Assembly (NCBI RefSeq): GCF_003790525.1
Contig: NZ_CP033635.1
Strand: one strand, 5' to 3'
Source of the DNA: Escherichia coli
Lineage (GTDB): Bacteria > Pseudomonadota > Gammaproteobacteria > Enterobacterales > Enterobacteriaceae
DNA length: 64,000 bases
The translations under genes and the position numbers were made by a program. Of the stretch, positions 22,769-31,330 are shown piece after piece; position 1 is the first letter of the stretch, and each line of letters starts with the position of its first letter. A model generated the notes under the pieces. That model made no database searches. It saw only the letters and a program-made list of their open reading frames with translations, and was not told the origin of the DNA.

Positions 22769-25468
22769 ATGCGTAAATATCCTTTAAGTTTACTGAAGGA
22801 TAAAAATATTGTGACTTTTTTTGATTTCTGGGGAAAAACCCGACGCGGCGAGAAAGACGGGGGCGACGACTATCACCTTCTTTGCTGGCATTCGCTGGAT
22901 GTAGCCGCGATGGGCTATTTAATGGTTAAAAGCAATTGCTTCGGACTGGCTGACTATTTTCGTCAATTAGGTTTCGCTGACACGGAGCAGGCAGCACAAT
23001 TTTTCGCCTGGCTGCTGTGCTGGCACGATATTGGAAAATTTGCCCGCTCTTTTCAGCAACTTTACCTGCACCCACAACTCAAGGTCCCGGAAGGCGCAAG
23101 AAAGAATTACGAAAAGATCTCTCATTCAACGCTGGGCTACTGGTTGTGGAACCATTATTTAAGTGAATGTCAGGAGTTGCTTCCTTCATCTTCACTCTCT
23201 CCGCGCAAACTTAAACGGGTGATGGAGATGTGGATGCCCATGACTACCGGGCATCATGGTCGACCCCCTGAGCGTATGGATGAACTGGATAATTTTCTGC
23301 CTGAAGACAAAGGTGCCGCACGAGATTTTCTCCTTGCAATCAAGGTACTGTTTCCGCTCATAGAGATCCCCACATTCTGGGATGATGACGAGGGCGTTGA
23401 ACTTATAAAACAACTTTCCTGGTATATCTCTGCAACCGTCGTACTTGCAGACTGGACGGGATCGTCAACGCGATATTTTCCACGCGTCGCACAGACAATG
23501 GATATTGAAGATTACTGGCAGAAAACTTTAGTTCAGGCTCAAAACGCCTTAACCGTCTTTCCTCCAAAAGCAGAAAGCGCGCCTTTCACCGGAATTAATA
23601 CGCTGTTTCCTTTTATTGAGAATCCGACACCGCTACAGCAAAAGGTGCTGGATCTGGATATCAGCCAGCCGGGACCACAGTTATTTATTCTGGAGGATGT
23701 AACCGGCGCAGGTAAAACAGAAGCGGCGCTTATCCTGGCGCACAGGTTGATGGCTGCGGGGAAAGCGCAGGGTTTGTTTTTTGGCCTGCCAACAATGGCA
23801 ACGGCCAATGCCATGTACGATCGACTGGTCAAAACCTGGCTTGCTTTCTATTCGCCAGAGTCCCGCCCCAGCCTGGTGCTGGCACACAGTGCCCGAACAT
23901 TAATGGACCGCTTTAATGAATCACTCTGGTCCGGTGATTTAGTCGGGTCAGAAGAACCGGATGAACAAACGTTCAGTCAGGGATGTGCGGCCTGGTTTGC
24001 CGACAGTAACAAGAAGGCGCTACTGGCTGAAATTGGCGTCGGCACGCTGGATCAGGCGATGATGGCTGTGATGCCGTTCAAACATAATAATCTGCGGCTT
24101 CTGGGACTGAGTAACAAAATCCTGCTGGCTGATGAGATCCATGCCTGTGACGCTTACATGTCATGCATTCTTGAAGGGCTGATCGAGCGGCAGGCGCGTG
24201 GCGGAAACAGCGTCATTTTGCTTTCTGCCACGTTATCTCAACAGCAGCGCGACAAACTCGTTGCTGCCTTTGCGCGTGGTATAGAGGGCCAGCAAGAAGC
24301 TCCGTTCCTGGAAAAGGATGATTACCCCTGGCTGACGCACGTTACGAAATCCGATGTGCATTCACACCGGGTAGCGACGCGCAAAGACGTTGAGCGCAGC
24401 GTGAGTGTGGGTTGGCTTCATAGCGAACAAGAGTGTATTGCGCGTATCGCATCGGCGGTAAGTCAGGGGAAATGTATCGCCTGGATCCGAAATTCTGTCG
24501 ATGACGCCATCCAGGTTCATCGTCAGTTACTTGCCCGCGGCGTCATTCCTGCTTCCAGCCTTTCACTTTTTCATAGCCGCTTTGCTTTTAGCGATCGCCA
24601 GCGAATTGAAACGGAGACGCTGGCACGCTTTGGTAAAGAAGACTGTTCACAGCGTGCCGGAAAAGTCCTCATTTGTACTCAAGTCCTGGAGCAGAGCGTT
24701 GACTGCGACCTGGACGAAATGATTTCCGACCTTGCCCCTGTTGATTTACTGATCCAGCGAGCAGGGCGATTACAGCGACATATCCGCGATATGAATGGCC
24801 AGTTAAAGCGTGACGGTAAAGACGAGCGTCACCCTCCTGAATTGCTGATTCTGGCCCCCGTCTGGGACGACTCTCCGGGTGACGAATGGTTTGGCAGTGC
24901 CATGCGTAACAGTGCATTTGTCTATCCCGATCATGGGCGAATCTGGCTGACGCAGCGTGTGCTGCGTGAGCAAGGTGCTATTCAGATGCCACACTCAGCC
25001 CGGCTTCTGATTGAATCAGTCTACGGTGAGGACGTAGTAATGCCGGAAGGGTTTGCCCGCAGCGAGCAGGAGCAAGTGGGCAAATATTACTGCGATCGCG
25101 CAATGGCTAAAAAGTTTGTACTGAACTTCAGGCCCGGCTATGCCGCCAATATCAACGATTACCTCCCGGAAAAACTGTCGACACGTCTGGCTGAAGAGTC
25201 TGTTTCCCTGTGGCTGGCTACCTGTATTGACGGTGTGGTGAAGCCTTATGCCACAGGTGCACACGCATGGGAAATGAGCGTTGTCAGAGTGCGCCGAAGC
25301 TGGTGGAAAAAACATCGGGATGAGTTTTCTTTACTGGAAGGGGATGCGTTCAGGCAGTGGTGCGTTGAACAGCGGCATGATCCGGAGATGGCAAACGTGA
25401 TTTTAGTCACCGATGACGAAAGTTGTGGGTATTCGGCTACGGAGGGATTGATTGGCAAGGTTGGTTGA
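22769..25468 (+). CDS. cas3: Cas3 helicase-nuclease (type I-E)
   Basis: 899 aa; N-terminal HD region and superfamily-2 helicase motifs (GAGKTEAA, DEIH); first gene of the cas cluster. Confidence 0.9.
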   Translation: MRKYPLSLLKDKNIVTFFDFWGKTRRGEKDGGDDYHLLCWHSLDVAAMGYLMVKSNCFGLADYFRQLGFADTEQAAQFFAWLLCWHDIGKFARSFQQLYLHPQLKVPEGARKNYEKISHSTLGYWLWNHYLSECQELLPSSSLSPRKLKRVMEMWMPMTTGHHGRPPERMDELDNFLPEDKGAARDFLLAIKVLFPLIEIPTFWDDDEGVELIKQLSWYISATVVLADWTGSSTRYFPRVAQTMDIEDYWQKTLVQAQNALTVFPPKAESAPFTGINTLFPFIENPTPLQQKVLDLDISQPGPQLFILEDVTGAGKTEAALILAHRLMAAGKAQGLFFGLPTMATANAMYDRLVKTWLAFYSPESRPSLVLAHSARTLMDRFNESLWSGDLVGSEEPDEQTFSQGCAAWFADSNKKALLAEIGVGTLDQAMMAVMPFKHNNLRLLGLSNKILLADEIHACDAYMSCILEGLIERQARGGNSVILLSATLSQQQRDKLVAAFARGIEGQQEAPFLEKDDYPWLTHVTKSDVHSHRVATRKDVERSVSVGWLHSEQECIARIASAVSQGKCIAWIRNSVDDAIQVHRQLLARGVIPASSLSLFHSRFAFSDRQRIETETLARFGKEDCSQRAGKVLICTQVLEQSVDCDLDEMISDLAPVDLLIQRAGRLQRHIRDMNGQLKRDGKDERHPPELLILAPVWDDSPGDEWFGSAMRNSAFVYPDHGRIWLTQRVLREQGAIQMPHSARLLIESVYGEDVVMPEGFARSEQEQVGKYYCDRAMAKKFVLNFRPGYAANINDYLPEKLSTRLAEESVSLWLATCIDGVVKPYATGAHAWEMSVVRVRRSWWKKHRDEFSLLEGDAFRQWCVEQRHDPEMANVILVTDDESCGYSATEGLIGKVG

Positions 25469-25565
25469 GATGTCTGCGACAGGATTCTCTGAATAGTTGA
25501 TACACAAAAAAGGATGGAAGGATGGACAACCGACCAGGGATGGTCTTTTTTACGAGAGGATGCGT

Positions 25566-30120: not shown

Positions 30121-31040
30121 CGTTTGTACCACTGAGTCCGATCCCGTTAAAAGATCGCACATCTATGATCTTCCTCCAGTACGGTCAGGTCGACGTACTG
30201 GACGGCGCTTTCGTGCTGATCGACAAAACCGGGATCCGCACGCATATTCCAGTGGGATCGGTCGCCTGCATTATGCTCGAACCGGGAACAAGAGTTTCCC
30301 ACGCGGCAGTCCATCTGGCCGCCACGGTGGGAACACTGCTGGTCTGGGTCGGTGAAGCGGGCGTTCGCGTTTACTCCTCCGGACAACCCGGAGGGGCGCG
30401 GGCAGATAAATTACTCTACCAGGCAAAGCTGGCTTTAACGGAAGATCTACGGTTGAAGGTGGTGCGCAAAATGTATGAATTACGTTTTCGTGAACCACCG
30501 CCAGCTCGCCGTTCAGTGGAGCAGTTACGGGGAATTGAGGGATCCCGTGTTCGCCAGACCTATGCATTACTGGCGAAGCAATATGGTGTGAAATGGAATG
30601 GTCGCAAATACGATCCTAAAGACTGGGAAAAAGGCGATGTTGTCAATCGCTGCATCAGTGCTGCCACATCATGCCTGTACGGTATATCTGAAGCGGCGGT
30701 ATTAGCCGCGGGATATGCGCCCGCTATTGGATTTATCCATAGTGGCAAACCGCTTTCATTTGTTTATGACATAGCCGATATCATTAAATTTGATTTGGTT
30801 GTGCCAAAGGCATTTGAAATAGCGGCAAGACACCCGGCAGAACCTGATAAAGAAGTGAGACTGGCCTGCCGTGATATTTTCCGTAGTAGTAAATTAACGG
30901 GCAAATTAATTCCGTTAATTGAGGAAGTCCTTGCCGCCGGTGAAATTGAACCACCACAACCTGCGCCGGATATGTTACCACCAGCTATCCCGGAACCTGA
31001 ATTGCTAGGTGATAGTGGTCACCGGGGGCGCAGCGGATGA
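30117..31040 (+). CDS. cas1: CRISPR integrase Cas1
   Basis: 307 aa; GTG start overlapping the casE stop; [24 protein letters not shown] is a Cas1 I-E N-terminus. Confidence 0.9.
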
Positions 31041-31330
31041 GCATGGTCGTGGTTGTTACAGAAAATGTCCCTCCGCGCTTACGTGGACGGCTTGCAATCT
31101 GGCTCCTGGAAGTACGTGCCGGTGTTTATGTTGGTGATACATCAAAACGTATTCGGGAGATGATCTGGCAGCAAATCTCCCAACTGGCAGGTTGCGGAAA
31201 TGTGGTCATGGCCTGGGCGACCAATACCGAGTCGGGTTTTGAATTTCAGACCTGGGGTGAAAACAGACGTATTCCGGTGGATTTGGATGGGTTACGGTTG
31301 GTTTCGTTTCTTCCTGTTGAGAATCAATAA
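31037..31330 (+). CDS. cas2: Cas2
   Basis: 97 aa; ATGA overlap with cas1; [26 protein letters not shown]. Confidence 0.9.

Follow-up and report, generated by a model that had tools for sequence, protein, structure and literature searches.

An intact type I-E cas operon of Escherichia coli that very likely belongs to the cas-E1 variant

Results and Discussion

Assignment and distribution of the operon

The 64,000-nucleotide (nt) stretch of Escherichia coli DNA analyzed here (contig NZ_CP033635.1 of RefSeq assembly GCF_003790525.1, hereafter the window) carries a type I-E operon of cas genes, the genes associated with CRISPR (short palindromic repeats that are clustered and regularly interspaced), at 22769-31330. 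Sequence comparison indicates, with high confidence, that this operon is an intact copy of the published E. coli variant known as cas-E1, cas-EO or “var. B-8552”, which at this locus of Escherichia, between cysH and iap, is the majority and probably the ancestral form. The eight cas genes in the list of open reading frames (ORFs) are all intact and co-directional on the + strand. They occupy the cysH–iap interval, with cysI and cysH upstream and the oppositely oriented iap downstream, which is the same place as in K-12 and is known as the classical CRISPR-I locus of E. coli. The variant has been published already, as have its distribution and modular origin, and nothing in them is new. They nevertheless bear on how far K-12, from which nearly everything known of the mechanism and regulation of E. 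coli CRISPR-Cas derives, can stand for the species. K-12 is unrepresentative: of the E. coli that carry cas genes, about two thirds have interference genes that are only ~25-36% identical to those of K-12, and the control region appears to be placed differently in the majority variant.

The cluster was named cas-E1 by Almendros et al. 2014 (mBio), who found it in all phylogroups with cas-E genes, clustered it with E. albertii and Salmonella Choleraesuis, and described an accompanying hok/sok locus that lies between cysH and cas3 in E1 strains and is absent from E2 strains; the K-12 form (cas-E2) was described as a later replacement of lower guanine-plus-cytosine (GC) content found in a minority of strains (PMC3903273). 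Diez-Villasenor et al. 2013 used the names cas-EO and cas-EK for the variants and reported that their acquisition motif, or preference for a protospacer-adjacent motif (PAM), differs (CWT vs CTT; PMC3737337). In a 2025 survey, the gene lengths given for “var. B-8552” are exactly those of the window, and its identities to K-12 differ little from those measured here (PMC12736100). The window shares with cas-E1 the locus, gene order, gene lengths (2700, 1563, 537, 1056, 747, 651, 924 and 294 nt), identities to K-12, hok/sok and a near-genome GC content, with no categorical difference, and it also has the IS186 copy between hok/sok and cas3 that the cas-E1 paper treats as a derived arrangement (PMC3903273). 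The cas-gene GC content, 51.5% in the window vs 45.6% in K-12, is below the published E1 mean yet clearly of the E1 class. An earlier reading of the window made from its letters without database searches (the sequence-only reading) had taken the operon for the second of two known E. coli I-E variants, and this assignment stands.

Among 5426 complete E. coli genomes, megablast searches recovered the window variant near full-length (coverage of 80% or more) in 2416-2418 and the K-12-type operon in 1115, or 45% vs 21%. Nucleotide identity across 2416 carrier genomes is 89-100%. Strain CM2 is identical (100%) over the whole 9 kilobases (kb), including the insertion sequence (IS), and strain SMS-3-5 shows 100% identity over the stretch from cas3 to cse1; most other carriers (O157:H7, W, O104:H4) show 90-95% identity, with 93.5% for the operon of O157:H7. 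The window allele is accordingly SMS-3-5-like, with ~5-7% nucleotide divergence from the alleles of O157:H7, W and O104:H4, which are common. E. albertii carries the variant at the same locus, with proteins 93-98% identical to those of the window. An Escherichia-type operon is also present on a 7-kb contig from a metagenome-assembled genome (MAG) filed as Collinsella sp. (JAIJJM010000114.1), with 96-98% protein identity for most genes and 85% for Cse2; it is almost certainly an Escherichia binning contaminant in an actinobacterial MAG.

Comparison with the K-12 operon

Pairwise global alignment with the proteins of K-12 MG1655 separates the interference proteins from the adaptation proteins. 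Identity is 31.7% for Cas3, 24.5% for Cse1, 25.5% for Cse2, 30.3% for Cas7, 36.2% for Cas5 and 30.2% for Cas6e, as against 84.6% for Cas1 and 86.2% for Cas2, while the flanking proteins CysH and Iap are 99.6% and 98.8% identical. The sequence-only reading had described Cas3 and Cse1 as unlike K-12 and Cas1 and Cas2 as K-12-like, a contrast that is confirmed (25-32% vs 85-86%) but that was incomplete, as all six interference genes from cas3 through cas6e diverge and not cas3 and cse1 alone. Identity above 90% for all Cas proteins, the outcome against which that reading was to be judged, was not found in this alignment. The two operons have in common their subtype, gene order, chromosomal position and a geometry of 29-nt repeats and 32-nt spacers; they differ in that K-12 lacks an intact hok where the window has an intact hok-like ORF, and in that K-12 repeats begin with GAG and window repeats with GTG.

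Recent recombination was considered as the source of the K-12-like Cas1 and Cas2 and was rejected, as the nucleotide identity of this module is only 71-74% against 85% for protein (cas1 alone is 71% identical in nucleotides despite 85% amino-acid identity). The combination of low nucleotide and high protein identity indicates an old adaptation module, common to both operons, on which strong purifying selection acts.

K-12 as the chimeric form

For a broader comparison, loci of relatives were collected by scanning genome contigs with Cse1 peptide patterns, to which the Salmonella Typhi-type loci of Senftenberg (L046) and houtenae (L047) were added. The Cse1 scan, which was aimed at a Typhimurium-type Salmonella locus, yielded loci of E. 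albertii, Citrobacter, Klebsiella, Gilliamella and Methanosarcinales and none of Salmonella, the peptide patterns being too specific. In the window, effector and adaptation proteins diverge in step across these relatives. Identities to the window for Cas1, Cse1 and Cas7, respectively, are 97%, 97% and 97% in E. albertii; 95%, 75% and 88% in Citrobacter; 87%, 62% and 73% in Atlantibacter; 83%, 44% and 58% in Gilliamella; 83%, 45% and 56% in the Salmonella Typhi-type operon (cas-STY); and 66%, 37% and 49% in Methanosarcina. The K-12 effectors, by comparison, are ~21-40% identical to those of every other compared locus, archaea included, while K-12 Cas1 is 81-93% identical to its enterobacterial homologues, the closest being that of the Salmonella Typhi type at 93%. 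The cas-STY operons, which are of type I-E and lie in the same cysH-iap neighbourhood, resemble the window at 83-84% for Cas1, 88-89% for Cas2 and 35-56% for the effectors. For Cas1, K-12 is nearer to cas-STY (93%) than the window is (83%), whereas for the effectors the window is nearer (45-56%) than K-12 (25-40%). Since Cas1 and the effectors rank closeness to cas-STY in opposite order, the two parts of the K-12 operon are incongruent.

The K-12 operon is thus a chimera in which effectors from a very distant I-E lineage accompany a Cas1 and Cas2 nested among enterobacterial homologues. DNA similarity between K-12 and the window starts 12 nt into cas1, and that between K-12 and Salmonella starts at the first base of cas1; within the K-12 operon, GC content is 44-48% across the effector genes and steps up to 51% at cas1. 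In the window the operon is homogeneous at 49-55% (mean 51.5%) within a stretch of 52.3% overall. K-12 differs from the window in carrying a replacement module, cas-E2, whose distant effector genes are joined at the cas6e|cas1 boundary to a cas1-cas2 pair of the enterobacterial type. This comparison refines the published “module exchange” picture without altering it.

The sequence-only reading implied the opposite polarity, and this has to be reversed, as the window variant is common and compositionally homogeneous and K-12 is the minority chimera. Six proteins at ~25-36% identity to K-12 between flanks at 99% would, taken alone, resemble a replacement in this strain, in which a recently gained foreign I-E effector module had displaced a K-12-like ancestral operon. 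Such an event is very improbable given that the window variant is present in more than twice the share of complete genomes that the K-12 type is (45% vs 21%), that E. albertii shares the locus at 93-98% identity, that the operon fits the window in GC content (51.5% and 52.3%) where the K-12 cas genes average 45.6%, and that the K-12 effectors form the outgroup to all others. Almendros et al. 2014 arrived at the same polarity as the one favoured here (PMC3903273).

Complete type I-E operons were also observed in Methanosarcinales archaea (L024-L033, L036). Their effectors are 37-40% (Cse1) and 47-50% (Cas7) identical to those of the window, to which the K-12 proteins are only 25% and 30% identical, and this likeness points to inter-domain spread of the I-E lineage of the window.

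Gene junctions and transcription

From cas3 to cas2, the junctions consist of a 97-nt gap, a 4-nt overlap (ATGA), gaps of 14 and 10 nt, a 19-nt overlap and two further 4-nt overlaps (GTGA and ATGA). The earlier statement that nearly all junctions overlap was accurate as to the ATGA, GTGA and 19-nt overlaps and overstated as to their number, which is four of seven. K-12 is equally compact downstream of casA (cse1), with junctions of -8, 12, 2, -14, 15 and 1 nt, so that tight packing is not specific to the variant. The sole architectural distinction from the K-12 operon is the cas3-cse1 gap (25469-25565, + strand), which at 97 nt, as opposed to 414 nt, is indeed shorter than the 100 base pairs (bp) claimed from sequence alone. 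Its downstream limit is the cse1 start, taken as the ATG at 25566 in agreement with the RefSeq annotation of homologues; the mechanical ORF opens at a TTG at 25497.

Base composition suggests that the control region has a different position in the two operons. The K-12 gap is AT-rich (29.5% GC, against 44% 5' of cas3) and holds a promoter controlled by H-NS and LeuO. In the window the reverse is seen, with 45% GC in the gap and 16% over a 128-nt tract immediately 5' of cas3 (22641-22768, + strand), for which the E. coli alleles form two haplotype groups. This AT-rich tract is a candidate H-NS-silenced promoter region that may serve as the promoter region of cas3. Transcription would begin in this tract and read through the 97-nt gap into cse1-cas2. 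We therefore regard a single cas3-to-cas2 transcript, as the sequence-only reading had proposed, as unproven yet plausible and moderately probable, with the sequence features leaning towards it.

Relatives provide additional perspective on the junction. The cas3-cse1 spacing is 11 nt in Citrobacter and Phytobacter, and in Methanosarcinales and a Lambdaproteobacteria MAG it ranges from an overlap of 13 nt to a gap of 13 nt; given these short or overlapping junctions, tight cas3-cse1 coupling looks ancestral. Across Citrobacter and Klebsiella relatives at 71-75% identity, the gap ranges from 11 to 500 nt. The Salmonella Typhimurium-type operon, termed cas-STM by Kushwaha et al. 2020 and equated with cas-E1 in the literature, is contiguous from cas3 to cas2, like that of the window, has a reported ~75% match to Escherichia, Shigella and Klebsiella systems, and is described with cas3 counted in the operon (PMC7712790). 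A 2026 preprint likewise treats cas3 as an operon member in Typhimurium (bioRxiv 10.64898/2026.02.26.708173), and deletion of cas3 in Salmonella Enteritidis raised all listed downstream cas genes ~8- to 20-fold (PMC7168661).

The alternative is that cas3 and cse1-cas2 form separate units, as in K-12 and S. Typhi, with a compact promoter either in the gap or within the 3'-terminal part of cas3, and with a hairpin followed by six T residues (T6) ending the cas3 transcript. The precedent is that both K-12 and S. Typhi have a promoter of their own for cse1-cas2 (PMC8039139). Several observations favour this arrangement and weigh against a single transcript. The sequence-only reading held that the gap leaves no room for a large internal promoter region, and while 97 nt is short beside the 414 nt of K-12, it suffices for a compact sigma-70 promoter, and another could sit inside the 3' end of cas3. 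The gap does contain a weak 5-bp hairpin, GACCAGGGATGGTC, followed by T6 at 25532-25551. It is also about twice as conserved as adjacent synonymous sites (0.055 vs 0.11-0.20), and may have a regulatory or attenuating role or house a compact promoter. Additionally, the promoter scan found no consensus sigma-70 site at threshold 5' of cas3.

We nonetheless consider separate units rather unlikely. The scan of the gap found no sigma-70-like site or promoter-like hexamers, although the promoter scan as a whole is uninformative (5 sites overall vs 8.8 in shuffles), and the gap is not AT-rich, unlike the promoter region of K-12. Among nine Escherichia alleles the gap is 89 or 97 nt long, owing to an 8-bp indel, and the Shine-Dalgarno sequence GAGAGGA and the T-run are invariant; the hairpin, however, loses one pair in several alleles without compensation, and the gap folds no better than shuffles (z-score 0.40). 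The hairpin with T6 was accordingly rejected as a terminator, being weak at five pairs, without covariation and with z = 0.40. The polar effect of the cas3 deletion in Salmonella Enteritidis (PMC7168661) also argues for one transcript.

The S. Typhi transcript map with its five transcription units (PMC8039139) was examined as a precedent against a single transcript and was rejected. In L046 and L047 cas3 and cse1 are divergently oriented on opposite strands, with 357 nt between them, and the effectors are of a different type, only 45% identical. These two loci (L046 1728-6320; L047 580-6135) are Salmonella chromosomal pieces filed in plasmid and phage collections, and in houtenae a RelE/Xre toxin-antitoxin pair stands between the divergent cas3 and cse1.

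A more general proposal can be put forward tentatively and at somewhat less than even odds. Recombination in Enterobacteriaceae may have recurred at the cas6e|cas1 boundary, a seam where at least three deeply divergent effector modules (E1/Typhimurium, Typhi and K-12) would have been joined to one conserved module of Cas1-Cas2, leader and repeats, with E1 genes from cas3 to cas2 driven from a single H-NS-type AT-rich region 5' of cas3. If this were true, the K-12 model, in which a LeuO/H-NS promoter separates cas3 from casA, would be inapplicable to most cas-bearing E. coli.

Integrity and predicted function of the Cas proteins

All eight proteins score above the cut-offs of the curated NCBIfam type I-E models at full length, and their ORF lengths equal those of RefSeq homologues. 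The first gene, cas3 (22769-25468, this and all following genes on the + strand), encodes 899 amino acids (aa) with the N-terminus MRKYPLSLLKDKNIVTFFDFWGK and joins an N-terminal HD nuclease (TIGR01596 cas3_HD, residues 38-233) and a DExH helicase (TIGR01587 cas3_core, residues 306-676), both above cut-off, in one polypeptide; its motifs HDIGK, GHHG, GAGKTEAA (Walker A) and DEIH line up with the solved Cas3 structure 4q2c. The large subunit of the Cascade complex is encoded by cse1/casA (25566-27128, 520 aa; TIGR02547, full length, 605 bits against a cut-off of 70), for which K-12 CasA is the only solved relative detected by sequence (E = 2e-15). It is followed by the small subunit gene cse2/casB (27125-27661, 178 aa; TIGR02548, full length, 103 bits against a cut-off of 28.5) and by cas7e/casC (27676-28731, 351 aa) for the backbone subunit, which scores 444 bits with TIGR01869, above cut-off. 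Next are cas5e/casD (28742-29488, 248 aa; TIGR01868) and cas6e/casE (29470-30120, 216 aa; TIGR01907), the latter for the endonuclease of the CRISPR RNA precursor (pre-crRNA), both above cut-off, which completes the order cas7-cas5-cas6e required of type I-E. The adaptation genes are cas1e (30117-31040, 307 aa, GTG start; TIGR03638, 380 bits) and cas2e (31037-31330, 97 aa; TIGR01873, 133 bits). With the models built on K-12, PRK09694 for Cas3 and PRK09693 for Cse1, the window proteins stay well under the cut-offs.

By homology, the locus would work like the standard type I-E pathway. Cas6e would cut the array transcript into crRNAs, around which Cse1, Cse2, Cas7, Cas5 and Cas6e would form Cascade; this complex would bind a PAM-flanked protospacer and then recruit the HD-helicase Cas3 for degradation of the target, and Cas1-Cas2 would extend the array at its leader end with new spacers of 32 nt. 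The operon could also be an inert relic, structurally intact yet permanently silent or non-functional in this lineage, and a number of points speak for this and against an active system. E. coli I-E systems are mostly silent under laboratory conditions, with silencing by H-NS known in general from K-12. We found no expression or interference data for the variant or the strain in the literature. Comparison of the spacers with phages and plasmids, at megablast sensitivity, gave no protospacer. Furthermore, an IS186 copy lies 183 nt 5' of cas3, and cas3 is frameshifted or IS-disrupted in other genomes.

A relic nevertheless seems improbable, as the eight ORFs are intact with conserved motifs, the IS186 copy interrupts neither the AT-rich tract nor any cas gene, and purifying selection is clear across alleles. 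For example, in the nine Escherichia alleles the diversity of cas3 is 0.029-0.035 at codon positions 1 and 2 and 0.11-0.13 at position 3, a difference that indicates purifying selection on this gene. Cas1-Cas2 of the same variant, from O157:H7, has moreover been shown experimentally to integrate spacers (PMC3737337).

Nucleotide diversity of cse1 within E. coli is high, with a pairwise value of 0.10 overall and 0.20 at third codon positions (L040-L045). This is about twice that of the neighbouring cas3 and is consistent with published reports of recombination in Cascade genes.

The hok/sok locus and the IS186 copy

Upstream of the operon, Rfam identifies sok (RF01794) at 20931-21088, and an intact hok-like ORF whose homologues are annotated Hok/Gef is present at ~21074-21226. 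The IS186 copy, annotated as IS421 in homologues, occupies 21249-22585 (+ strand; transposase ORF 21296-22414) between hok/sok and cas3. Its terminal inverted repeats are readable, and its target duplication, GGGGTAAAACC, lies in a GC-rich hairpin. The insertion is 22 nt past the hok-like stop codon (flanks 21226-21248 and 22586-22640) and falls within the 3' region, over which Escherichia alleles show 100% conservation. The same IS junction occurs in 170 of the 5426 complete genomes, O104:H4 included. Pedersen and Gerdes are said to have described in 1999 that chromosomal hok loci of K-12 are inactivated by IS elements in a like manner. Arrangements derived from IS186 insertion have been described for the cas-E locus (PMC3903273).

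CRISPR leader, array and spacers

The leader (31331-31426, + strand) is 96 nt long with 28% GC and can be aligned with the leaders of K-12 (105 nt) and Salmonella (84 nt); a promoter-like TTGGTA-16-TAAAAT is found at 31371-31398. The array (31427-32797, + strand) thus begins 96 nt past cas2, shares its direction of transcription with the cas genes, and comprises 23 repeats (29 nt each) and 22 spacers (32 nt each) with a period of 61 nt. The main repeat, GTGTTCCCTGCGCCAGCGGGGATAAACCG, is present in 18 copies, and 18 of the 23 repeats have a T at position 9, so that the stem CCCTGC/GCGGGG still pairs by way of a G-U pair. Near the leader-distal end, repeats 19-21 have a C at position 9, as repeats of K-12 and Salmonella typically do; the last base of repeat 17 is C, and the final repeat of the array is degenerate. 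These differences mark the array as a patchwork of repeat subtypes. The cas-E1 variant has been described with a leader of its own (L1, or leader-A) and A-type repeats. The window repeats open with GTG (...CAC on the other strand) and those of K-12 with GAG, which would fit the distinction between A and T repeat types.

At megablast sensitivity, the spacers matched only chromosomal arrays that had been mis-filed and a single array fragment borne on a plasmid. The latter is a type I-E mini-array of three repeats and two spacers (L048 2492-2656) on the IncI1 conjugative plasmid pR11-698-2 (NZ_CP107157.1), where it adjoins ISEcp1-blaCTX-M-15-wbuC; no other plasmid in a set of 72,556 carries it. 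Many E. coli have a chromosomal array of which one part matches it at 100% identity, and on the Nord122 chromosome wbuC directly adjoins that array. The mini-array is likely a piece of chromosomal array that was carried along in a re-transposition of ISEcp1.

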